From UHGV virus genome UHGV-0090252: a stretch of 64,000 nt of DNA; one strand, given 5' to 3'. The stretch is from a virus. This document shows, piece after piece, positions 18,860-47,750 of this stretch (its first letter is position 1; each line of letters opens with the position of its first letter). The notes under the pieces are model-generated. The model was not told the origin of the DNA. It saw only the letters and a list, made by a program, of their open reading frames with translations, and did no database searches. The translations under genes and the position numbers were made by a program.

Positions 18860-20390
18860 TTTATAAAATTTTATCGGTTGTACCAACCTCTGGGTCACCA
18901 TCATATGTGAATAAAATATCTATCCTTCTTAACAGCCTTCTTAATCTTACTCTCTATATAGTTATATAGTACTATATAGTATCTTAGTAACTATCTAGTG
19001 GTCTTAATAGCCCTCTGTATAACCCTTCTAACAAGCCCTCTAACAAGCCTTCTAAACAACCTATACAATCACCTTAACCATCTCTCTATACTCTCTTAGA
19101 AGCTCCCATACACCTCTTAATCTCTAGGTTAGCTATGACACTCTCTATAGGTGTTCACTAGGTATTACTAAGCCTCTATATAGACTGTTTTAACAAACTT
19201 AACAGGAATATCTTCACAGACCTTATCTCACAAGGTCTAACACGGTACTAACAAGGTATCTTATAAGCCTGTTTCCACCTGTATTTTTAAAAGACTGTAT
19301 AGGTAATTATTCAGAATTTTAAAATTTTTATAAAATAGGACTATCAAGTCATTTTTTTAGGGTCTTTGAAGGAACTGAAAAATATCTGTAGAAGATGTAT
19401 ATCTGCTTGGTAGCCCTTAACAGCTCCCTTACAAGTACTTTGCAGAATTTTAAAATATCATTAACAGTTTCTTAACAGTTCTCACATCTTCTTAACAACT
19501 CTTCAAAGGTCTTAACAGTTTCTTAACAGAACTAACAAGGGTTTAACAGTTTTCTAGGGATTGGTAACAATACCAATTAACAAGTGCTGAATAGGCTTTA
19601 CAGAGGCTTAACAGATGACTAACAAGAGCTAACAAGTTAATTTTTAAGAGTTATTTTGTTAAGATAATTAACAAGTCCCTAACAAGTGTTTAATCTTTTT
19701 AACAAGCTATTAACATGGTCACTACTCTTTTCTTATCGTTCCCTTTCCTTTCTTAGTGACTTCTTAAACATACCTCTTAAAAGCTCTTAAAAGCTCTTTA
19801 TAGGCTCTTTTAAGTCCCTCCCTAGTATTTACCCCTCAACTGTATGGATAGCTCTTTATAGGGCTTTACAGGAGCTTTTAAGGCTATGCCAAAGGTTCTT
19901 ACAAGGTTTTTACGTGGTCTTAACAGAGATTTAACAAGGTGCTAACAAGAATAACTATGTAGGGTTTGTTAAGAAAATGTTAAAAAAATGTTAAGGGGGC
20001 TAGCATTTACGTAACTTTTAAGCTACTTCAAAGTAACTTTATAACCCCTATAACATACTTTTTAATAGCTATCAAGGGGTTTGTTTAATCATTCACAAGA
20101 TACTAGCCAGCCTATAAGCTTTCACCCTTATAAGGTTCTTTTAAGGCTCTCAGAAGCTTTATAAAGGGCTTTTTAGGGTGGGTTAATATGATTGCTTAAG
20201 TTAGGGTGATAAGGCTGTTATAGGGCGTTATAGAGCGTTTAAGGGGTTGCCCTTCCCTTTCGGGTTATGGGCTTATATTTAAGTTGATTTGATAAGAGGT
20301 TATAGAGTAGACTATAGAGTTATTGCTTTTTAAGGTCTAGTAAGATTCTGGAAAGGAAAGGGAAAGGGTTTGTATAAGGATTCGATAGAC
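18860..20390. repeat. 1.5 kb repeat-rich non-coding region between convergent transcription units
   Basis: no ORF of 60 aa or more on either strand; dense short repeats (TATATAG/CTCTATA at 18940-19200; more than 20 copies of YTAACAR at 19400-19960; CTCTTAAAAGCTC and TTATAGRG families to 20330). Confidence 0.7.
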
Positions 20391-20392
20391 GT

Positions 20393-20417
20393 AAAAAAGC
20401 CCCTTTGAGTAGGGGCT
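20393..20417 (-). terminator. rho-independent terminator ending the small-gene array
   Basis: hairpin AGCCCC-loop-GGGGCT with AAAAAA on plus strand to the left (U-tract on the minus-strand transcript). Confidence 0.65.
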
Positions 20418-20455
20418 GTTCAGGTATCTGGGGCTAAATAGCCCCGCTGCGTCGA

Positions 20456-20704
20456 TTAGTTAGTGCCTTCTTTGTCGTAGTACAGGGAGACAATTTTTTC
20501 ACCCCAATAGTGAAAAGAATAACCCTCTTTAAGAACTTCCTGTTTTGTTTCCTCCCAGAACTCATTAGAAGGATTATAGTCGCTGATGGTCTGACTGATA
20601 AGACCTTTCACCATTTCAAAGGCGTTATCAGTGCCTGCAATGTCAAATTTAACATCCAGAGAGTAAAAACCAAATTCGTTAACAGTAGCGCGGATAGTTG
20701 CCAT
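20456..20704 (-). CDS. hypothetical small protein (82 aa)
   Basis: ATG directly preceded by conserved type A cassette with AGGAGA RBS. Confidence 0.55.
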   Translation of the reverse strand: MATIRATVNEFGFYSLDVKFDIAGTDNAFEMVKGLISQTISDYNPSNEFWEETKQEVLKEGYSFHYWGEKIVSLYYDKEGTN

Positions 20705-20772
20705 TTTTGAATCTCCTAGTTTAAGGGTTTTATTTAGTGGGGAAGGTCATTCCCTCTCCGTTGATTGACAAT
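20705..20772 (-). promoter_or_regulatory. type A intergenic cassette (hairpin plus Shine-Dalgarno)
   Basis: minus-strand consensus GTAAATTGTCAATCAACGG-GC hairpin-CACTAAATAAAACCCTTAAACTAGGAGATTCAAAA-ATG; five copies. Confidence 0.6.
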
Positions 20773-21303
20773 TTACAGATTTTTGATTGTCTCATCAATA
20801 TCTTTTTCAATATCTCTCAAAGTTTTTTCTAAGTTCTTGATATTGAAAGATAAGCCTTCTCCCAGTGTCTTAGCGTAACCATTGGGGCGCAAGTCATGCA
20901 GTTCGATTCCTTCCACTTCGAAGAGACTAACCAGCTCACCGCTTACAGTGTAAGCCATTGAAACAGTATTTACAGGGGCTTTATAGAACTTGTTTAAGAA
21001 CTTGATTGAACGCTCATAAGCCATTTTATAGCTATTTAAAAGGTTTTTAACTTGGCTATGAACGTTTTTGCACTCATCCAAGTAAATCCCTAAGAATAGC
21101 GGTAATAATTCTGCTACAGCTTGCATAAAGTGAGAGACTACAACGGTTGCAGCATTACGACGATGAACGTAATAAGCCCCGTTTTCTGATTTGGTGATGG
21201 TTGCAAAGTGTACCCCATTGCAGCGAAATTCGTAGGTATCTTTGACAGGCTTTGACATTACAGCATTTGAACGAATATAGTTGATGGCTTTGAACTTGTT
21301 CAT
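20773..21303 (-). CDS. hypothetical protein (176 aa)
   Basis: ATG preceded by type A cassette. Confidence 0.55.
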   Translation of the reverse strand: MNKFKAINYIRSNAVMSKPVKDTYEFRCNGVHFATITKSENGAYYVHRRNAATVVVSHFMQAVAELLPLFLGIYLDECKNVHSQVKNLLNSYKMAYERSIKFLNKFYKAPVNTVSMAYTVSGELVSLFEVEGIELHDLRPNGYAKTLGEGLSFNIKNLEKTLRDIEKDIDETIKNL

Positions 21304-21375
21304 TTTTGAATCTCCTAGTTTAAGGATTTTATTTAGTGGGGGAGGTCATTCCCTCCCGTTGATTAGTAATTTACT
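21304..21375 (-). promoter_or_regulatory. type A intergenic cassette
   Basis: TTTTGAATCTCCTAGTTTAAGGATTTTATTTAGTGGGGGAGGTCATTCCCTCCCGTTGATTAGTAATTTAC on plus strand. Confidence 0.6.
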
Positions 21376-21526
21376 TGTTTTGATAGCTGATTGCAAGCAA
21401 TTTTTTAAGCTTATCTATAAAGAACCTTTTAAGTGAATCCCTTTTAGATAAACCCCCCTCGAACAACATTACCAATGTCAAGGGGTATTGTCAACACTTT
21501 TTTGAAAGTTTTTTGTAAGTTGTTGA

Positions 21527-21868
21527 TTAACTGATGAATATTTTTTCAGGTTTTACATAGCTGATACGTTGGATTTTTAGCAGGTCATCCCAGATTAGTG
21601 CGGCAATATGAGCATAACCGGATTCACGTAGAAGCTTCATTGCTTTACTTCTCGTTTCAAATCGGTTTGCATAGTACTCGCTGCTCAGGGTTGTTTTCTT
21701 CCCTTCATTGTCTACATGAATAATCTGCATTACTTGGAAGGGGCTTACATCCTCGCCTTTATTCCATTGCTCAAAGTATTTTAGGCACTGCATAGGTGTC
21801 ATCTTATCACTTACTTGGGTTGACCAAGATGAATCCGGTTTATTGGTGATTACAGTTACATAAGCCAT
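21527..21868 (-). CDS. hypothetical protein (113 aa)
   Basis: ATG preceded by type A cassette. Confidence 0.55.
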   Translation of the reverse strand: MAYVTVITNKPDSSWSTQVSDKMTPMQCLKYFEQWNKGEDVSPFQVMQIIHVDNEGKKTTLSSEYYANRFETRSKAMKLLRESGYAHIAALIWDDLLKIQRISYVKPEKIFIS

Positions 21869-21945
21869 TTTTGAATCTCCTAGTTTAAGGATTTTATTTA
21901 GTGGGGGAGGTCATTCCCTCCCCGTTGATTGACAATTTACAGACT
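21869..21945 (-). promoter_or_regulatory. type A intergenic cassette
   Basis: same 70-nt consensus as 20705-20772. Confidence 0.6.
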
Positions 21946-21959
21946 TTTATCAGGCTTGT

Positions 21960-22193
21960 CTAGTCTTTTTCAATGATAATTTCATATTGACCATCAACAC
22001 TATCAAAATAAATGCCGTCGTCGTCTTCTGTCTTAAAGTAGCATTGAATATCATCACTTGCGGGGTAGTCTTGCCTTGCTATCTGGCAAACTTGAATAGC
22101 ATTTTCTTTACTTCCTGTAAACTCCTCAAGCCCTTTAAAATCGCATGAATGACCATTACAGATGGAAAGGATGAGATAAATGGTTGTAAGCAT
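21960..22193 (-). CDS. hypothetical Cys-containing small protein (77 aa)
   Basis: ORF followed upstream by terminator-like hairpin rather than a cassette. Confidence 0.5.
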   Translation of the reverse strand: MLTTIYLILSICNGHSCDFKGLEEFTGSKENAIQVCQIARQDYPASDDIQCYFKTEDDDGIYFDSVDGQYEIIIEKD

Positions 22194-22207
22194 GATTTAA
22201 GCCCTCT

Positions 22208-22227
22208 AAAAGCCCCTACAAGGGGCT
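22208..22227 (-). terminator. rho-independent terminator
   Basis: AGCCCCT-ACA-AGGGGCT hairpin with A-run on plus strand to the left. Confidence 0.55.
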
Positions 22228-22258
22228 AATTAGTGTTTATAAGGTGATTATATAGATT

Positions 22259-22801
22259 TTAGAAAAAGCTCTTTAAATCTTTCTCTGTGATGTTTCCTGT
22301 CAGTGTGTCCATGATGTCACAAAAAACCTGAATACTGTCCGACTGTTGAACGCTTTTAGCAAGAAGTTCCAGAGACTCATCAAGATAGTTTAAATTTGGG
22401 TTATCCAGTGAAGGAAGACAAAAAGGCGAAAACATCGCATTAAACTCGGTTACGTAAACCTTTTTAATCCAACTTGCATCAAAGTACTCTGTAAAACTTG
22501 CCACGCCAGACATATTATCACAAGAATAATCATCATTCAGCTCATCCTCTGGAATATCAAGTTCCAAGATAACAATATTTTGAGTTTTCATCTGGAAAGC
22601 GGCTGTAATAGTGGCATTACCTAATGCTTGCTGAATGCCTTCGGCTGTCATCTCTTCTTCATCGTCGCCATAGATTTTATTTTCTGGATACACGTAAAAA
22701 TTACCGTCCATGTCCGAACAATTCCATGCGCCTGATGGTTTATCGCCGTTATTAATCAGGTTGAGGAAGTTTTCTTGAGTAGTACCGTGAAAGCATTTCA
22801 T
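22259..22801 (-). CDS. hypothetical acidic protein (180 aa)
   Basis: ATG preceded by type B cassette. Confidence 0.55.
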   Translation of the reverse strand: MKCFHGTTQENFLNLINNGDKPSGAWNCSDMDGNFYVYPENKIYGDDEEEMTAEGIQQALGNATITAAFQMKTQNIVILELDIPEDELNDDYSCDNMSGVASFTEYFDASWIKKVYVTEFNAMFSPFCLPSLDNPNLNYLDESLELLAKSVQQSDSIQVFCDIMDTLTGNITEKDLKSFF

Positions 22802-22885
22802 TTTTGAATCTCCAGTCTAGGATTTAGTGGTAAAGCTCTTTATCTGGAGCTTAAGATATCAACTTTTAAGCCCCCTGTAAAGTAC
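22802..22885 (-). promoter_or_regulatory. type B intergenic cassette (9-bp-stem hairpin plus Shine-Dalgarno)
   Basis: minus-strand consensus AAAGTACTTTACAG-GGGGCTTAA(N11)TTAAGCCCC-AGATAAAGAGCTTTACCACTAAATCCTAAATTGGAGATTCAAAA-ATG; five copies with stem-preserving loop variants. Confidence 0.6.
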
Positions 22886-22886
22886 T

Positions 22887-23090
22887 TTATCGGTTATTTT
22901 TGACAACTTTTAAAACAGCACGGTAACCTAAGCAATAGGAATCACCGAAGAGCGACCGACCCATGAAGGAGTCCTCTGTAATATCTTTCGCCGTGACGGT
23001 TTTTTCTACGCCGTGAAAAAGAACTACATCCCCGGCTTTAATGTCTTTGATGTGTGTGGTTTCAATGGTTAAGCCGTTAATAATAGCCAT
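22887..23090 (-). CDS. hypothetical small protein (67 aa)
   Basis: ATG preceded by type A cassette. Confidence 0.5.
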   Translation of the reverse strand: MAIINGLTIETTHIKDIKAGDVVLFHGVEKTVTAKDITEDSFMGRSLFGDSYCLGYRAVLKVVKNNR

Positions 23091-23160
23091 TTTAGAATCT
23101 CCTAGTTTAAGGGCTTTATGTAGTGGGGGGGATGGTCATTCCCTCCCCGTTGATGTGTAA
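23091..23160 (-). promoter_or_regulatory. type A intergenic cassette
   Basis: variant with extended G/C hairpin and (TA)6 tract. Confidence 0.55.
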
Positions 23161-23200
23161 TTTAATATATATATATAAAAACCAGTGTCAACAAAAATTT

Positions 23201-23605
23201 TTAAAGTTCTGCATAAATTGCATCACAGATATTACGGAAGTCGTGATTTGACAAATTACGCTGCAACCAAGTGGCGAAAAAGTCAGCGATTGCATAATTA
23301 GCATCATACTCGACGGATAGCCATACTTTTACGGCGAATCTGAACATTTTTAAATCAAGCTCTTTATTCATTACCTTAGATTTGCCCAACATGTCAGCCA
23401 TTTCATATTGCGCACCGTCTAGCGTGATACCTGCTGCAACGTCAGTTAATGAGTTTTTCACGTTTTCAACGTCTAAGATAACACTTTGAATCTTCCCAAT
23501 AATGTTGTGCAATGTTTCATCAGGTGCTGATGATGTCAGAACATTAATCCGGTTAACTGTCAAACGTGCTTTTAAGATTGATAACTCACGGTTATTAATA
23601 GCCAT
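23201..23605 (-). CDS. hypothetical protein (134 aa)
   Basis: ATG preceded by type B cassette. Confidence 0.55.
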   Translation of the reverse strand: MAINNRELSILKARLTVNRINVLTSSAPDETLHNIIGKIQSVILDVENVKNSLTDVAAGITLDGAQYEMADMLGKSKVMNKELDLKMFRFAVKVWLSVEYDANYAIADFFATWLQRNLSNHDFRNICDAIYAEL

Positions 23606-23692
23606 TTTTGAATCTCCAATTTAGGATTTAGTGGTAAAGCTCTTTATCTGGGGCTTACTTTATCGAACTATAAGCCCCCTGTAAAGTACTTT
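23606..23692 (-). promoter_or_regulatory. type B intergenic cassette
   Basis: hairpin GGGGCTTA(N13)TAAGCCCC variant. Confidence 0.6.
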
Positions 23693-23965
23693 TTATACTA
23701 AATGCAGTTTTTTACCTTTTACTATGATGTAACTTGATGCGCTATTACTTTGCACATCTTGATAAATTCTACGCAAACGGCCTTCGTAGTATACTTTCCA
23801 ACTGGTTGGAATCTTTTTCCCGTATCCTGTAGCAGTTTTTTGCAGTCCTGCAAGTTGCCAATCAAGAATATGTTGTTCAGCTTGTAAATCCTCGAAGTGC
23901 ATTACGCCGTTCACATAGTGGCGCAGGGTTACGTTTAAGGTGCGACCGTTGTTAGTAGTATACAT
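23693..23965 (-). CDS. hypothetical small protein (90 aa)
   Basis: ATG preceded by type A cassette. Confidence 0.55.
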   Translation of the reverse strand: MYTTNNGRTLNVTLRHYVNGVMHFEDLQAEQHILDWQLAGLQKTATGYGKKIPTSWKVYYEGRLRRIYQDVQSNSASSYIIVKGKKLHLV

Positions 23966-24040
23966 TTTAGAATCTCCTAGTTTAAGGGCTTTATGTAGTG
24001 GGGAAGGTCATTCCCTCCCCGTTGATTAGTAATTTACTTG
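23966..24040 (-). promoter_or_regulatory. type A intergenic cassette
   Basis: same consensus. Confidence 0.6.
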
Positions 24041-24055
24041 TTTTTAAAATCAAAA

Positions 24056-24388
24056 TCAAGATAAATTTTTTCGTTTGCTCAGTTCTTGAACAATTACAGC
24101 GTAGTAGTCTTTTAAGTCACTGATATTTAAAGCATTTATCAGAGAGTTATAATCATCGACTAACTGAAAATCATCTTTAAAGATGTCGCTGATTTGATAA
24201 GTTCTCGATTGAAATCTGAAACTCATTTCTAACCGTTTTATTTGTTCATCACTTAAACGCTCCAGAAAGCTCATTACAAGGCTATTATTGACCTGTTGCG
24301 TGATTGCCTTACTTGCCAGAGTATAGGCGCTGTACGCCTTATATAGCGCCATAATAGCAATGATTGCAGTGATGCCAGTCATTAGCAT
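24056..24388 (-). CDS. hypothetical protein with N-terminal TM helix (110 aa)
   Basis: start overlaps end of upstream ORF; hydrophobic N-terminus. Confidence 0.5.
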   Translation of the reverse strand: MLMTGITAIIAIMALYKAYSAYTLASKAITQQVNNSLVMSFLERLSDEQIKRLEMSFRFQSRTYQISDIFKDDFQLVDDYNSLINALNISDLKDYYAVIVQELSKRKNLS

Positions 24389-24678
24389 GGTGATTCCTCT
24401 TTACGTGATACTTTGCCGCTTACAGTTATCTCATAAGATTCTAATAAATCACTTTTAGACTTTACAGGGCTTTTAAAAGTATTATCGTAAATATTGACTT
24501 GCAATACAGGGTTTTTATACTCCCTGCAACTATTCCATAAGCAAATCACTACACGACGGCCTTTAATTTTGCCGTGTAACCATTCCATAACATCATGATT
24601 ATTTCTTGATGTTTCAATGAAATCAATTTTATTAAGTAACTTGCTCAGATTTTCACGAACTTTATTTGATAATTTCAT
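24382..24678 (-). CDS. hypothetical small protein (98 aa)
   Basis: ATG preceded by type B cassette. Confidence 0.55.
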   Translation of the reverse strand: MKLSNKVRENLSKLLNKIDFIETSRNNHDVMEWLHGKIKGRRVVICLWNSCREYKNPVLQVNIYDNTFKSPVKSKSDLLESYEITVSGKVSRKEESPC

Positions 24679-24766
24679 TTTAGAATCTCCAATTTAGGAT
24701 TTAGTGGTAAAGCTCTTTATCTGGGGCTTACTTTATCGAACTATAAGCCCCCTGTAAAGTACTTTA
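24679..24766 (-). promoter_or_regulatory. type B intergenic cassette
   Basis: same consensus. Confidence 0.6.
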
Positions 24767-25072
24767 TTAGTTAATTTTCAGCTTTGCATGACCTCTCATT
24801 GTACGAATGGGGGAGGTTAAGGCTACGCGTCTAATATATGCCTTTTTCGTGTATATATTTGTCTTCCCGATAGTGTTTACACATGTAAAAAGGTTTATTG
24901 GTGAATTTTTTAACTTCAACTGTTTATCAACCTTCACGCCCCACCTTACAGCAGACTGTTTTCCGTTGTCAACAACTTTACCGCATAACTTTTTAGCCAT
25001 AATGCGAGCATCATCACGAGTTTTTGCAGTAATTACAACGTTTTTGATAATAGCCATTTTTAAGTTCTCCAA
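24767..25072 (-). CDS. hypothetical basic protein (101 aa)
   Basis: ATG preceded by type B cassette. Confidence 0.55.
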   Translation of the reverse strand: MENLKMAIIKNVVITAKTRDDARIMAKKLCGKVVDNGKQSAVRWGVKVDKQLKLKNSPINLFTCVNTIGKTNIYTKKAYIRRVALTSPIRTMRGHAKLKIN

Positions 25073-25143
25073 TTTAGGATTTAGTGGTAAAGCTCTTTAT
25101 CTGGGGCTTAAGATATCAACTTTTAAGCCCCCTGTAAAGTACT
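25073..25143 (-). promoter_or_regulatory. type B intergenic cassette
   Basis: same consensus. Confidence 0.6.
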
Positions 25144-25527
25144 TTATTTGTTAATTTTGAAGATAGTTACATAACCATCGCTACCAATGATTTGCGGCAC
25201 TCCAACTTTTTCTACTGAATAGCCCATATTTTCAAGATGATAAATGGCATCATCATAACCATATGCGCCACCCTGATAACGTCTCTTATTGCATTTTATC
25301 AGGTTTTTTCCACGTCCTGCAAGTGCATTCAGTATGGTTTTTTCGCTTGAGAGTGTACCATCTATCATGGTTGCCGTGTAATGGTTGATTTTATTCCCGT
25401 TGATGTCATATTTAAAATTAAATGAGTGAACAACAATTTTATTGCCTTTGAAATTCTCATCAAGTGACTTCTCCAGTACGTTGCGAAAGTTGTCTTTGTT
25501 GATGAATTTCGGTGCACGATAAGCCAT
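25144..25527 (-). CDS. hypothetical protein (127 aa)
   Basis: ATG preceded by type B-like cassette. Confidence 0.55.
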   Translation of the reverse strand: MAYRAPKFINKDNFRNVLEKSLDENFKGNKIVVHSFNFKYDINGNKINHYTATMIDGTLSSEKTILNALAGRGKNLIKCNKRRYQGGAYGYDDAIYHLENMGYSVEKVGVPQIIGSDGYVTIFKINK

Positions 25528-25618
25528 TTCTGAATCTCCTAGTTTAAGGGTTAATGTGGTAAAGCTCTTTATCTGGGGCTTAAGATATCAACTTTTAAGC
25601 CCCCTGTAAAGTACTTTA
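25528..25618 (-). promoter_or_regulatory. type B intergenic cassette (diverged 3' part)
   Basis: hairpin core conserved. Confidence 0.55.
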
Positions 25619-25825
25619 TTAGATATCGTAGTAATAAACTGCTGTCTGTCTTATGTGCTTTCTTGTATTTCTTGTAAGGTAGCAATCAGAGTTGATTGCT
25701 GTTTCTACATAGTTGCAATAGTCAGCTTCTGATATTCTAGACCATACGCCACAGATTTGCATGTAAAAACGTTTTACCTTTGTGTTAACGTTAGTTGTAA
25801 CCATCAATTCACGACCGTATAGCAT
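25619..25825 (-). CDS. hypothetical small protein (68 aa), first gene of the array
   Basis: ATG with AGGAGA RBS; upstream region is the 26060-26270 direct-repeat array. Confidence 0.5.
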   Translation of the reverse strand: MLYGRELMVTTNVNTKVKRFYMQICGVWSRISEADYCNYVETAINSDCYLTRNTRKHIRQTAVYYYDI

Positions 25826-26059
25826 TTTTAAGTTCTCCTAGTTTAAGGCTGTCGGGCTTGTCGCCCCGTCTGATGCAAATACTATAAAAACCCGTTCAAG
25901 GAGTCAATGAAAATTTTTAAAAATATTTTTGGCAAAAATGTAATGAAACGGGTGCGCGCGATTACCACAAAACAGAACTACAATCAAGAATTATTTTTCA
26001 ATCCGCTACAAATTTTTCTGTTGACTTTTATTTTCAGATGTGGTAGCCTTGTGAGAAAT

Positions 26060-26270
26060 GGCGACAGCCCCACCTACACCCACCTACCTGCACAATTCTC
26101 AAATGATTTTTCTTGCCCGACCTGATTTTTCTCTGCACGTTTTGAAAATGAAAAAGCTCTTTGGAGATTACCTGCACAGTTTGAAAATGAATTTTCTCTT
26201 TGGAGTTCAAAATTCTCTCTACAGATTTCTCTATAGAAATATACCTGCACAATTCTGAAATGAAAAAGCC
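26060..26270. repeat. array of four imperfect ~22-bp direct repeats (CCTGCACARTTYTSAAATGA) plus CCCACCTACACCCACCTACC
   Basis: copies at about 26086, 26128, 26171 and 26245 in the 500-bp non-coding gap upstream of the small-gene array. Confidence 0.6.
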
Positions 26271-26336
26271 CTCCTTACCTGAAAAATTTACCAGATAAGA
26301 AAGGCTTAGTCTATTGTGAATATCCTACGAAGTTTC

Positions 26337-27122
26337 TTAGTTCTTTGCGTCTAAGAAGGTAACTTCTGGCGAAGAGAAAACTGTCTCGATATCCTCATCA
26401 GTTCTTGCATAGATGTAGGTGTCTGCATCGCTACCAAATGTCACGGCAATTCTATGATTGCTCTTCGACAGGTGGGTAACTAGAGCGTTACTTAGAGACA
26501 TCTTTTCAACCGGAGGGTTACTTTGATGTATCTTACCTTTTCTTCGTCTGAAGAGGGTAACTGCATTATCCGTGAACACAACTACACCTGCAAAGTATTC
26601 TGGTTCACAGTAGTTCTTCCAACCTGAGCGTAACTTGTGGTACATCTCTCCTTCATAGACATACAGATAAACATCCACACTCTTCATCACCTGATTGATG
26701 ATAACTGTGACAGCTTGAGGGTCAAGTCCACCAATACCTGCACCAATCATAGGTAAACCAACTTTCTTCAACTGATTGACTTCACAGTATCTGTTAAGCT
26801 GTTTCAAAGATGACTCTAAAGCACTGTATCGTGCATCTTTACCAGTATGAAGTTGGGTGTAAAGGTTAGCTATACGACCTTGTTTTAAACGTGCTACAGA
26901 TAAATTACCTAGTAAATTTTCACAGGGTTTGTGACGAATGCCACCTGCAAACAGGTAAACTTCTGTGTCAGTATCATACACTTTTGGATAACGCTTAGAA
27001 ATAGTTGCTGCAATACCTGCACCCATGAAATTCATACAGTTGCAACCATGACCAATGATATCAAATTTACCTTTATCAAATGCTTCAAAGATATCACCTT
27101 TGATGATTTTTACAATACCCAT
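26337..27122 (-). CDS. macro-domain protein (ADP-ribose binding/processing fold) with about 100-aa C-terminal extension
   Basis: 261 aa; GDIFE, FDIIGHGCNCMNFMGAGIA and LPMIGAGIGGL match the diphosphate-binding loops of macro domains. Confidence 0.7.
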   Translation of the reverse strand: MGIVKIIKGDIFEAFDKGKFDIIGHGCNCMNFMGAGIAATISKRYPKVYDTDTEVYLFAGGIRHKPCENLLGNLSVARLKQGRIANLYTQLHTGKDARYSALESSLKQLNRYCEVNQLKKVGLPMIGAGIGGLDPQAVTVIINQVMKSVDVYLYVYEGEMYHKLRSGWKNYCEPEYFAGVVVFTDNAVTLFRRRKGKIHQSNPPVEKMSLSNALVTHLSKSNHRIAVTFGSDADTYIYARTDEDIETVFSSPEVTFLDAKN

Positions 27123-27323
27123 TTAACATCTCTCCCAAGATTCTTTATCTTCTGAAGGTTTTACACGCTGTCCTTCGTGGTCTACCCAGATGCACCCACA
27201 ACCTTCACAGATTACTGGCATTGCATAGCCAGCCTTAAAGTCATCTTCAGTGATGAGACCTTTTAAGTCACCTGTATCACGTCCGAACATTTCGATAGAA
27301 CAATCTTTGCAGAAGTCAGCCAT
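27123..27323 (-). CDS. hypothetical zinc-ribbon protein
   Basis: ORF track trimmed to internal ATG (MADFCKDC...CEGCGC) because the upstream extension overlaps the preceding ORF. Confidence 0.45.
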   Translation of the reverse strand: MADFCKDCSIEMFGRDTGDLKGLITEDDFKAGYAMPVICEGCGCIWVDHEGQRVKPSEDKESWERC

Positions 27324-27543
27324 GAATAATTGCCTCTTGAATGATAATACCTTTACCACAACGACTTTTAAAGTCTTCCAATGGTTCAGAGATGAAGCCA
27401 CGTAAGCAGTCAGTGAATACTAAGTTTTTCCTGTAAGCTATCACATCATTTGCTGTAAATGGGATGACCTCATTTCGTCCAATGAACACTGCTGACCTGA
27501 TAAGTTTTCGTGTCTTTTTATCTCTGGCTAGTATTACTTTCAT
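27316..27543 (-). CDS. hypothetical protein (75 aa)
   Basis: ORF in minus-strand run. Confidence 0.45.
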   Translation of the reverse strand: MKVILARDKKTRKLIRSAVFIGRNEVIPFTANDVIAYRKNLVFTDCLRGFISEPLEDFKSRCGKGIIIQEAIIHG

Positions 27544-27844
27544 AGTTTACCTTCTCAGTTAGCTCATATAAATCAACATGCTCAATACTGTCAATGTTGA
27601 TATTAATCTTTTTGAAACGTTCTATCACTTCGTTATCAGTCATCCATATCAGACACCAATGATTCTGGATGGATTCTTCAAGAAGGTCAACACAATCTTT
27701 AAAAGTTTTTGTATCACTTCTTGTTCCTACTACTGCGATTGTTCCATACAGCCACTTACCATTGCCATAAGTTACTTGTGCTACACCAACCTCTTTACCT
27801 TTCTCGTAGTAAACGGCTACAAAGTCTCTTCCATTAATCTGCAT
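27518..27844 (-). CDS. hypothetical protein (108 aa)
   Basis: ORF in minus-strand run. Confidence 0.45.
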   Translation of the reverse strand: MQINGRDFVAVYYEKGKEVGVAQVTYGNGKWLYGTIAVVGTRSDTKTFKDCVDLLEESIQNHWCLIWMTDNEVIERFKKININIDSIEHVDLYELTEKVNYESNTSQR

Positions 27845-27846
27845 AG

Positions 27847-28116
27847 TTACTTCCTCGTTTTGAGAACTGCTAAGATTTCTTTAGAGTCTGGTAAGAACCA
27901 TGTGTAGTGATTCTCTTTGATTTCTGGATGAGTGTCAACCTTTATTTTGCAGTCTTTACCGACATGCTTAAGCTGTGCTGTGACACCTTGCATAAAGATA
28001 TGACACATCACATTATCCATAATGGTTGGTATGAAGTCAATTCGCATATAAGTTTCTTTTGGTCGTGGTAACAGTAAGTAACCTTCTACATAGAAAGTAT
28101 CTTCATTCTCTGTCAT
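27847..28116 (-). CDS. hypothetical protein (89 aa)
   Basis: ORF in minus-strand run. Confidence 0.45.
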   Translation of the reverse strand: MTENEDTFYVEGYLLLPRPKETYMRIDFIPTIMDNVMCHIFMQGVTAQLKHVGKDCKIKVDTHPEIKENHYTWFLPDSKEILAVLKTRK

Positions 28117-45515: not shown

Positions 45516-47750
45516 CTAAACACCACAGCCCTCGCAATAAGCATCTTGCAGTGCAGATTTACCTACACCAATGCGACTGTTAAGGTAGTACATGGTTTTC
45601 ATACCTACCGAGTTGGCATAAATCATGTACTTCAGAGCTTGAGCCAATGATACCTTCTTAGACTTTGCATAGTCAACATAGAAGTCTGAAGAAATAGCTT
45701 GACCAGTGAACTTTTGAACAATTGCATAACAATCAATCATATCAAAGGTGTCAATACCCCAAGCAATTTCATAAACATACTTCAACTCTTCATAATCTGG
45801 AACAATAAACAGTACGTTACCAGTTGCAGACTTTTTAGTTAAAATAAAGTCACGAATTGGGTACAAGCCATTTGTCGTATTAGTTGCTAGTGAAGAACTC
45901 TCATTAGGCATGTAAGCTTCTAATACAGAGTTTCGGATTCCACCATTCTCTTTGATACGTTGTGCTAAGTCATTCCAATCATATCTTAGTTTTGCATCAT
46001 GCTTTTCATCAATCTTCTTGTTAGCTGTCTTTGGAGGAACCCAGCCTTCAGGATACTTAGTGAACTTCATGTACTCTGGAACACCACGCTCTTTAGCAAG
46101 TCTCAGAGAGGCTTCATGCAGATAGTAAGAGTGCATCTCTGCAAGTTCATGAAGCTTCGTCTTACCTGCTCGTGAAGAGTAGTTCACGTAGTTCTTCGCA
46201 AGGTAATGAGCCACATTTGTAAGGCCAATCCCAACAGAACGACGCTTCTGAACATGGTTACGCATCGACGGATACGGATAATCCATAAGGTCAATAACGG
46301 AATCAACCATTGCAAGAGCATAATAAGCAACGTCAGCGTATTCATCTTCTGAAATTCTCCCTGCAACCAAACTAGCTAGGAAGCAAAGAGCCACCTCACC
46401 ATCCTCTTTCACAGCATCGTCTCTGTAAAGGTCTGTCTCTTTCTCAAAACCATACACTGGCAACACAATTTCCATACAAAGATTTGACATCTTCAAAGGC
46501 TCTTTAAATGGTGTATGTGTGTTTGCATTGTTAGTGAAGAATGGATACACACGACCTGTAGCATAACGCTGTTGAATAAACAGCTTAGCAATTTCACGAG
46601 CCTTTACTCGTCTGTGCTTAACTCCTGAATGTACTGCGTGACCAACTGCCATAGCAAACTCATCAGCAGATGCTGTGTAGAACATGTCATAGAGTTTTGG
46701 TGCATCTTTGTAAGAGAATAGCAACCAATCTGTATCATACTGAACACACTGCCAGAAATAATCGTTTGTGCCGAATGAGTAGTCCATCTCATTAATACGT
46801 TTAGAAGGAACCGTTGTAGGGTGCTTCAAACGCAGTAAATCTTCAATCTGCGGGTCTAGAGCAGTGTAGAAGTTATTAGCTGAACCACCACGGCTCTTCT
46901 GTTTGTTTGCCTCTACAGATGAACGTACAAGCTTGTAATAAGGCAGCTTACCCATGTGCTCAATCGTATTTTGACGGATACCATCACCAATAGTACGTGT
47001 CTCCATCAGCATACCAATACCAGCTTGCTTTGTGGTCATATCATAAGCAACCTTTGCAGCAATACCGAGAGACTCAGCAGTATCATTTGCCTTAATCAAA
47101 CAGCATGACGCATAACCTGATTTAGTTGCTCTTAAGCCATTTAAATAAGGCGTAGGGGCGTTAATCTTCAGGTCAGATAGATAAGTGTACAGCTTGATAA
47201 CATCTTGCAGTCTACGGTGCTTTGGTTGCTTCTCAAAAGCTTTCATAGCCATACCCATAAACATAAATTGTGGTGACTCAAAAAGTCTTCCCGTTTTAAT
47301 ATCACGGATACCATACTTGTCTCTGAACTGTTTCAAGACTGCATAACCGTAAGAGATATCTTTTGAGTGTACGATGTAACCTTGCAGGTATTCAAGCTCT
47401 TCCTGTGAATAATCCATCTTCTCCCAAAGTCCTGCTCTCTCCATATTTTTAACGAAGGTGACCAGCGTAGGAACCTTAGTAAAGCCTCCAAAGGCTTCTT
47501 TGTAGATAATACCCAAAAGCAGTCGTCCAGCCATGCCTGAGTACTCTTGAGTTTGTTTATCAACACAAACATCAATCATGGCTTGGTGCATCTCTTTTGT
47601 AGTGCAACCCTCATAGACACGTTTCATAGCTTCCATAGTGACTTCTGACCAGATAATTCCACGTTTATCTGCCCATGATGCCCATTTATTCAGTCTTTCT
47701 GGGTCAAAGCTGACTACTGTACCGTTTGATTTTTTAATTGTCTTAATCAT
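45516..47750 (-). CDS. nrdA: ribonucleotide reductase class Ia large subunit
   Basis: 744 aa; N-terminal ATP-cone (KKSNGTVVSFDPERL) and overall R1-like sequence. Confidence 0.85.
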   Translation of the reverse strand: MIKTIKKSNGTVVSFDPERLNKWASWADKRGIIWSEVTMEAMKRVYEGCTTKEMHQAMIDVCVDKQTQEYSGMAGRLLLGIIYKEAFGGFTKVPTLVTFVKNMERAGLWEKMDYSQEELEYLQGYIVHSKDISYGYAVLKQFRDKYGIRDIKTGRLFESPQFMFMGMAMKAFEKQPKHRRLQDVIKLYTYLSDLKINAPTPYLNGLRATKSGYASCCLIKANDTAESLGIAAKVAYDMTTKQAGIGMLMETRTIGDGIRQNTIEHMGKLPYYKLVRSSVEANKQKSRGGSANNFYTALDPQIEDLLRLKHPTTVPSKRINEMDYSFGTNDYFWQCVQYDTDWLLFSYKDAPKLYDMFYTASADEFAMAVGHAVHSGVKHRRVKAREIAKLFIQQRYATGRVYPFFTNNANTHTPFKEPLKMSNLCMEIVLPVYGFEKETDLYRDDAVKEDGEVALCFLASLVAGRISEDEYADVAYYALAMVDSVIDLMDYPYPSMRNHVQKRRSVGIGLTNVAHYLAKNYVNYSSRAGKTKLHELAEMHSYYLHEASLRLAKERGVPEYMKFTKYPEGWVPPKTANKKIDEKHDAKLRYDWNDLAQRIKENGGIRNSVLEAYMPNESSSLATNTTNGLYPIRDFILTKKSATGNVLFIVPDYEELKYVYEIAWGIDTFDMIDCYAIVQKFTGQAISSDFYVDYAKSKKVSLAQALKYMIYANSVGMKTMYYLNSRIGVGKSALQDAYCEGCGV

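Follow-up and report, generated by a model that had tools for sequence, protein, structure and literature searches.

Locus and gene order

The stretch of DNA considered here (the window) is a 64,000-nt sequence from the viral genome UHGV-0090252 and belongs to a Felix O1-like phage: positions 25500-26900 are 99.7% identical to Escherichia phage vB_Eco_Tribble and match 249 phage records, nearly all of them Felixounavirus. Our subject is an array of four direct repeats in the 511-bp gap between the stop of a macro-domain gene (26337) and the start of the first gene of a block of small genes (25825). The genes around the array are all on the minus strand. The macro-domain ("phosphatase") gene (27122-26337, minus) encodes 261 aa, and its operon ends in an intrinsic terminator with a 17-pair stem and a T-run (26307-26266, minus). 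This terminator is annotated as such in Tribble and wV8 as well and is the equivalent of the Felix O1 terminator t13 (Felix O1 Table 2, PMC3185647). Along the gene strand, the terminator is followed by the repeats, then by a sigma-70-type promoter, TTGACT-17-TAGTAT (25907-25879, minus), with an A/T-rich stretch just upstream, and finally by the first small gene (25825-25619, minus). Both hexamers of this promoter are conserved in the alignment of relatives.

A bipartite repeat in the gap

A sequence-only reading of the interval 26060-26270 had described four imperfect copies of a ~22-bp unit, irregularly spaced, in a gap of ~500 bp between the macro-domain gene and the first small gene. All four copies were found at that place and in the same orientation, with start-to-start distances of 73, 39, and 45 bp in the gene direction. 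The unit was correctly recognized as a repeat, whereas its orientation and extent required revision: because all genes here lie on the minus strand, it is to be read TCATTT-N7-GTGCAG along transcription, and it is ~30 bp long. On the gene strand the full motif is bipartite, GRGM-W5-TCATTT-N7-GTGCAG, with cores at 26263-26245, 26190-26172, 26151-26133, and 26106-26088 (minus strand). The pattern TCATTT-N5-8-GTGCA had four matches in the 64 kb, every one of them in the array and on the minus strand, where 0.30 were expected; none of 100 shuffles reached four. The sequence CCTGCACA occurs three times in the window, always within the array, and here the clustering is significant although the count alone is not.

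A position weight matrix (PWM) built from 79 unique instances yielded a ~30-bp unit, G-R-G-M-W5-TCATTT-N7-GTGCAG-R. When the window and the 26 kb of the Tribble genome absent from it were scanned with this matrix, only five sites reached 12 bits or more, namely the four repeats (35-44 bits) and one isolated copy (26 bits); no score fell between 12 and 26 bits, and there was no second cluster. Across the 79 instances CATTT and GTGCA were fixed and N7 varied, the fixed blocks being so partly by construction because the instances were chosen with that pattern. The centers of TCATTT and GTGCAG are ~12 bp apart, about one helical turn, and the A/T-rich center between the blocks varies freely.

The first copy after the terminator, R4 (GGGCTTTTTCATTTCAGAATTGTGCAGGTATATT; 26238-26271, minus; 44.0 bits, with a core match), has a T-run that doubles as the U-tract of the terminator just upstream. 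It is followed by R3 (GAGAAAATTCATTTTCAAACTGTGCAGGTAATCT; 26165-26198, minus; 38.1 bits), which is the copy absent from the three-copy variants (L032, L035, and L036), and by R2 (GAGCTTTTTCATTTTCAAAACGTGCAGAGAAAAA; 26126-26159, minus; 40.3 bits), whose core is invariant in an alignment of 24 unique relatives. The last copy, R1 (AAGAAAAATCATTTGAGAATTGTGCAGGTAGGTG; 26081-26114, minus; 34.9 bits), is preceded by the conserved block CAGGTCGGGCAAG, and the sequence AGGTC-K-GGCAAGAAAAATCATTTT at R1 is common to Erwinia phage phiEa104.

An isolated fifth copy at an internal promoter

The isolated copy (motif TATTTGTATTTTGTGCAG, 30434-30417; PWM span GGCCTTTTTTATTTGTATTTTGTGCAGAGTGCTG, 30443-30410; minus; 26.1 bits) lies directly after the terminator that follows rIIB (30459-30436). 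From its end it is 7 nt to a perfect TATAAT (30409-30404). Downstream lies the open reading frame (ORF) at 30372-29824, whose product starts with a signal-peptide-like sequence; this is not a DNA-binding gene. Relatives keep the TATTT, TGTGCAG, and TATAAT of this site, with variation in N7 and in the N6 before TATAAT, and in one lineage the first block of the copy supplies a -35 hexamer, TTGAAA, at a 16-nt spacer.

Conservation and constraint

The four copies hold their position in GenBank records and in 19 relatives from IMG/VR. In some Felixounaviruses the end of the macro-domain gene, the terminator, and the spacer all differ, and three copies are still present at spacings of 75 and 45 bp. 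There are four in Suspvirus SUSP2 and four in Mooglevirus Silverhawkium, which spaces them 75/39/45 and has a macro-domain protein 65% identical. At a greater distance, the macro-domain protein of Erwinia phage phiEa104 (Kolesnikvirus) shows 44% identity over 58% of its length and the intergenic DNA around its array has little recognizable similarity to the window; four tandem units of the form TTTTTCATTTT-N6-TGTGCATAG are present at 37/37/39 bp. Behind the macro-domain gene of a metagenomic relative, whose gene order is unchanged and whose proteins are 38-41% identical, lie at least three clear copies and two degenerate ones. The array has persisted, nearly unaltered, throughout the phage subfamily and for the whole of its existence.

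Nucleotide diversity (pi) was calculated across 19 co-linear Felixounavirus sequences. It was 0.007 in the core blocks, 0.020 in the ten bases upstream of the core, 0.056 in N7, and 0.082 in the inter-repeat spacers, compared with 0.043, 0.019, and 0.106 at codon positions 1, 2, and 3 of the flanking gene. The cores are therefore more tightly constrained than second codon positions, and the motif is under very strong purifying selection.

Outside of this phage group, two adjacent motif copies were sought in 185,579 species genomes, which gave 43 stretches, none in Enterobacterales. Judged from their regular spacing alone, these multi-copy stretches look like unrelated repeat arrays. Matches in viruses other than Ounavirinae were inspected; their regular period was mostly 36-57 nt, and they resemble coding repeats.

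The additional tract that the sequence-only reading had placed beside the repeats is also present. It lies after R1 and exists in two alleles. Allele a, carried by the window, was reported by Tandem Repeats Finder (TRF) as CCCACCTACA x1.9 (26069-26087, or 26069-26088 when listed as a feature) and is C-rich on the plus strand and G-rich on the gene strand. Allele b, found in most relatives, has the gene-strand sequence CCCCTCTCCCCCTCTTACTCCCCCTCTCCCC (plus strand, GGGGAGAGGGGGAGTAAGAGGGGGAGAGGGG); pi for the tract was 0.319. Allele b has four C4-5 runs on the gene strand, so that the opposite strand could form a G-quadruplex.

Coding potential, RNA structure and promoter content

Several public records annotate genes across the array, including Felix O1 ORF14, wV8 gp013, Tribble TRIB_125, and Bas63 0096/0097 (opposite strand). 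Open frames of 47-91 codons do exist on both strands, and one antisense frame is open in several genera. The annotated ORFs nevertheless differ in strand and frame, their start codons are not conserved, and the motif is kept regardless of frame, with 37- and 73-bp spacings and a 2-nt deletion in wV8 breaking the frames. The array has no codon periodicity: its variable columns fall 19/18/17 on the three codon positions, in contrast to 16/6/37 in the flanking gene, where the third-position bias is plain. A small protein gene over the array was rejected on these grounds, and we consider it extremely unlikely; the genes called there in public records are spurious.

A second alternative is that the repeats act as RNA, in read-through or antisense transcripts with four motifs that a protein binds or cleaves; the motifs might, for instance, serve as a sponge, mark a processing site, or mimic a type III antitoxin. 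Type III antitoxin RNAs are exact tandem repeats of 34-46 nt, with a terminator and a toxin gene behind them, and share the GTGCAG hexamer with the motif. The Erwinia phages, with true tandem repeats of 37/37/39 nt, resemble such an array (ToxI) in their ~37-nt units. All five copies lie along transcription, two of them directly after terminator U-tracts, and the region is transcribed: Felix O1 "ORF14" (8042-8254) was positive by RT-PCR with a maximum at 25 min, in an assay that was apparently not strand-specific (PMC3185647). Other observations argue against a function in RNA. Rfam gave no family at E<=1 for 24000-28000, ToxI included, and single-sequence folds of the two strands were no better than shuffled sequence (z = +0.5 and +0.8), so that there is no sign of a stable or conserved fold. 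A free center between fixed blocks is the pattern of a DNA site and not that of a helix, and differs from the conserved pseudoknot of ToxI-type arrays. In addition, the spacing in the window is irregular (73/39/45), no toxin-like gene lies downstream, the terminator comes before the array along the gene strand, and no paired motif copies turned up among the Enterobacterales genomes scanned. An RNA-level role for the repeats is, on balance, improbable.

The sequence-only reading had proposed that the repeats are stacked promoters or operators controlling the small genes. If they were stacked sigma-70 promoters, each repeat would fire toward the small-gene block and would hold a -35-like hexamer and a TAnnnT 16-18 bp apart. 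R4 does match TTTTCA-17-TATATT at 9 of 12 positions, R1 carries TTGAGA in the window, and the fifth copy lies within what looks like a genuine promoter. R4 is, however, the sole repeat with a sigma-70-like match (one of 13 promoter-like matches in a 2.5-kb scan); R2 lacks any -10-like sequence, and R3 and R1 score only 2-3 of 6 for a -35 in register with their TAnnnT. There is also no common register, as TATAAT begins 7 nt past GTGCAG in the fifth copy and TAnnnT 1 nt past it in R3, and the bases after GTGCA vary among genera (GGTA, ATG, TAG). TCATTT and GTGCAG, being 7 bp apart, cannot be a -35/-10 pair; the invariant blocks sit at the position of a promoter spacer and not on hexamers. Finally, the promoter at 25907-25879, the plausible driver of the small-gene block, lies ~180 bp downstream of the last repeat and has no copy of the motif. 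The promoter half of the proposal is thus decidedly improbable. Its operator half fares better and is plausible in view of the bipartite invariant blocks, the strong constraint, and the fifth copy over the -35 and spacer of a promoter.

A proposed DNA-level binding-site array

Of the readings considered, a non-coding, DNA-level array of protein-binding sites agrees best with the data; for its role we favor, tentatively and as possible rather than probable, that of an operator or boundary in transcription. Two dissimilar invariant blocks with centers ~12 bp apart and a free A/T-rich center are expected of a protein that reads two successive major grooves. We infer from this arrangement that a protein may bind here, and with it a possible binder and a possible effect on transcription. 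One sequence-specific protein with two reading heads would load on the four same-orientation sites right after the macro-domain terminator and form a nucleoprotein boundary, or operator array, between the macro-domain operon and the small early genes of a ~6-kb terminal block. Bound at the fifth site, across -35 and spacer, the same protein would regulate the 30.4-kb promoter, most simply by repression. That a protein bound at the fifth copy would cover the -35 and spacer is our main reason for favoring a role in transcription.

A candidate for the binder or regulator is a Cro/C1-type HTH_3 protein of 99 aa, the homolog of Tribble TRIB_061, which is encoded just outside the window in this virulent phage (L037, 23502-23801; Tribble record 47001-47300). 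It is 97-100% identical within Felixounavirus and 71-79% identical in sister genera.

Several points weigh against an operator or boundary function. Pfam and PHROGs searches of the ten downstream proteins, aimed at a binder, returned only unknown functions. Rather than overlapping the small-gene promoter, the four sites are 180-360 bp upstream of it, and the motif is absent from the other early promoters of the block. The site lacks dyad symmetry, unlike typical operators of helix-turn-helix (HTH) dimers, and is thus atypical for the HTH_3 candidate. The five copies share the direction of transcription, which also fits a transcription-coupled or RNA-level role. A PhageMaP study calls the ~46-66 kb segment of Bas63 uniformly non-essential (bioRxiv 10.1101/2024.10.10.617714), and the Bas63 array falls within it, at 64.06-64.56 kb; any function of the array may therefore be dispensable or redundant in the laboratory. 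As regards known binding sites, the consensi of sigma-54, CRP, IHF, Fis, LexA, and Fur were compared by eye, as were the MarA box and E. coli CRISPR repeats, and none fitted all copies; the DnaA box was fitted only by the Erwinia versions.

Among known systems, the array resembles the operator arrays of phages, such as the four p4 sites between the early and late promoters of phi29, the asymmetric 17-bp sites of P1 C1, and OL/OR of lambda. Like these it has several sites of 17-30 bp in non-coding DNA at the boundary of a transcription unit, an additional site over a promoter, and constraint confined to the contact blocks. The present sites differ in being direct repeats without a dyad and in having the main cluster off the downstream promoter.

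The principal rival is a replication origin, in which the repeats would be iterons for a phage initiator; the A/T-rich stretch, the G-quadruplex-capable tract, and the promoter would aid unwinding or priming, and the distal site would be auxiliary or autoregulatory. Iteron-type origins occur in lytic myoviruses, T4 oriE being an example, and no replication origin has been mapped for this phage group. The array shares with lambda ori, P1 oriR, T4 oriE, and P4 ori/crr a unique set of three to five same-orientation repeats, one distal site, and a nearby A/T-rich stretch and promoter. Iterons are typically three or more direct repeats of about 17-22 bp in one orientation, unique in the replicon; the motif has four copies on one strand here and forms no other cluster in the genome. 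Its sites are 20-30 bp in size and spaced 37-45 bp, and a cluster with a distal site ~4.2 kb away resembles the layout of P4 ori/crr and the iteron-plus-operator layout of plasmids. The stretch of 23% GC (25880-25939), which overlaps the upstream part of the 25907-25879 promoter, places low GC content near a strong promoter; it is ~150 bp from R1. No initiator gene is adjacent: the upstream gene is the macro-domain gene, and none of the ten downstream proteins matched Pfam. Nor does a DNA-binding gene follow the fifth site, and the spacings are irregular and longer than those of classical iterons. There is no change of GC skew at the array, a marker that is uninformative for origins because skew in phages mostly follows the direction of transcription. 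The reported non-essentiality of the Bas63 segment likewise argues against a unique essential origin, with the reservation that the statement concerns the segment as a whole and not the cores as such. We regard an origin as unlikely, while taking it seriously as an explanation.

Arrays of direct-repeat protein-binding sites are a familiar kind of element. The motif, the depth of its conservation, and its fixed position are undocumented in the literature searched, and the sites are described neither in the Felix O1 genome paper nor in the wV8 annotation nor in the full-text articles covered. The Felix O1 paper does list several promoters and those direct repeats that are 24 bp or longer, and states that the timing of transcription is unknown. 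A short, sharply defined cis-element that is more constrained than the neighboring protein gives an experimental handle. Felix O1-like phages are widely used in Salmonella typing, in biocontrol, and in therapy cocktails, and functional non-coding elements matter when such phages are engineered.

The array and the genome end

Terminal repeats of Felix O1-like phages have been reported as 608 bp in UAB_Phi87, determined experimentally (PMC4837284), and as 581 bp in Pr103Blw, assigned with PhageTerm (PMC8303462). The Pr103Blw repeat maps to ~19420-20000 of the window, 6 kb from the array, and the physical end inferred in this way places the array at 6.66-6.85 kb (~7.6% of the genome) from that end. 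On the minus strand, the region 19420-20000 begins with GCCCCC, continues with three TTAACA at an 11-bp period, and further on has ~20 inverted TGTTAA(G); it is likely a region of packaging or terminus recognition.

The block of ~6 kb between the array and the end consists of small genes, all of unknown function and transcribed toward the end. The distant metagenomic relative (7.5 kb) and a Kolesnikvirus-like contig (7.2 kb) show the same layout: a macro-domain gene, the array, 6-7.5 kb of small genes, and a terminal region rich in TTAACA/TGTTAA. The small genes of the distant relative have no detectable match to those of the window. With this recurring layout, at a fixed place relative to the end, the array is a conserved boundary of the terminal early block.

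One way in which such a boundary could work is as a stop during DNA entry, as in T5. The array would pause entry after the terminal ~6.7 kb, once its four sites had been captured by a protein of the host or the phage, and the outward-facing early genes of the block, driven by sigma-70, would be expressed first. In T5 the first-step transfer covers 7.9% of the genome and the stop signal (iss) is a conserved, repeat-rich untranslated region (bioRxiv 10.1101/866236). The array is similar in being repeat-rich, untranslated, and conserved, in lying at nearly the same relative distance (7.6-7.9%), and in bordering, on the inner side, small early genes that are transcribed toward the end. The layout is kept in three lineages despite non-homologous genes in the block, and the sites of the Erwinia phages are DnaA-box-like, one mismatch from the consensus TTWTNCACA (8/9). 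On the other hand, T5 combines a terminal repeat of 10 kb with inverted repeats and eight DnaA boxes in pairs (bioRxiv 10.1101/866236), compared with a terminal repeat of ~0.6 kb, direct repeats, and poor DnaA boxes in the coliphages; the best reading in the window, ACCTGCACA, matches 6/9 of TTWTNCACA. Pfam and PHROGs searches with the ten downstream proteins gave no Pfam family and only PHROGs of unknown function, with no A1/A2-like protein recognized. Our literature search found no report of two-step entry for Felix O1-like phages, and the fifth site at an internal promoter is left without explanation. A T5-like stop is accordingly very unlikely; if it were true, the Felix O1-like myoviruses would be a second, independent case of two-step DNA transfer.

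In the distant relative (L106, minus strand, ~620-770 of the locus, and the joined sequence L127+L106), eleven same-orientation TTAACA directly follow the motif array. The first three are phased as at the start of the terminal repeat, and another 7.5 kb along, at a point of gene convergence, is a second TTAACA/TGTTAA region. The pattern hints at a TTAACA-binding factor common to the array region and the terminus.

Further elements of the gap and the small-gene block

A second type of repeat, TCTRTAGAGA, read from the sequence, occurs twice in tandem between R4 and R3 (TCTATAGAGAAA and TCTGTAGAGAGA; 26214-26237, minus); TCTGTAG x2 is also retained in the three-copy variants. The sequence CTCCAAAGAG precedes R3 (26196-26205, minus) and again R2 (26157-26166, minus). 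Beyond R1, the alignment of relatives shows a nearly invariant 46-bp block (25984-26029) that is identical in Mooglevirus and contains a plus-strand TTGACT (26021-26026). In the window allele, a 17-nt spacer with TGG at its end separates this TTGACT from TAGCCT, giving an extended -10-like TGG-TAGCCT (26041-26049) that faces the repeats. Together they could form a putative antisense promoter, whose transcripts would cross the repeats in the direction of the hairpin at 26266-26307.

The slot of the first small gene (25619-25825) is mosaic, with at least three unrelated alternatives at homologous positions of relatives (L004-L022), namely MLYGRELMV..., M[KA]YRAPKFINKDNF..., and MASRKIKVGDE...; the promoter and array upstream are unchanged. 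Intergenic spacers of the small-gene block (window 20400-25900; wV8 locus L024, 608-1508) carry repeated promoter/terminator cassettes, which correspond to DR_1, DR_6, DR_7, and DR_9 of the wV8 annotation. Single records gave multiple BLAST places because these cassettes recur in the block.

Assembly breaks at the array

The possibility that the genome terminus or a pac site lies at the array was raised because several assemblies stop or start within the intergenic region (L014, L015, EC106, and Andreotti). It was ruled out, as the supported terminal repeat maps 6 kb away. The breaks all fall in the G-rich/C-rich tract of allele b, and two carry remnants of Nextera transposase ends; they are accordingly drop-outs of sequencing or assembly. 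At least five independent assemblies break or carry remnants in 26050-26088 (L014, L015, L026, L025, and L032); the end of L015 is adapter sequence, and in VpaE1_ev035 the tract holds an insertion of CTGTCTCTAGAGACAG.

Two GenBank records look like incomplete assemblies deposited as complete genomes. MN850610 (Andreotti) starts with a rearranged junction in which TGCAGACCACACTCAGGTC is joined to TGGCTCTC, and ON210138 (EC106) is missing ~230 bp of the intergenic region between its two ends. In L019, from 3510 to the contig end, the phage sequence stops after CAGGTCGGG, between R2 and R1, and gives way to what we take, by eye, to be E. coli mukB; this contig is probably an assembly chimera.

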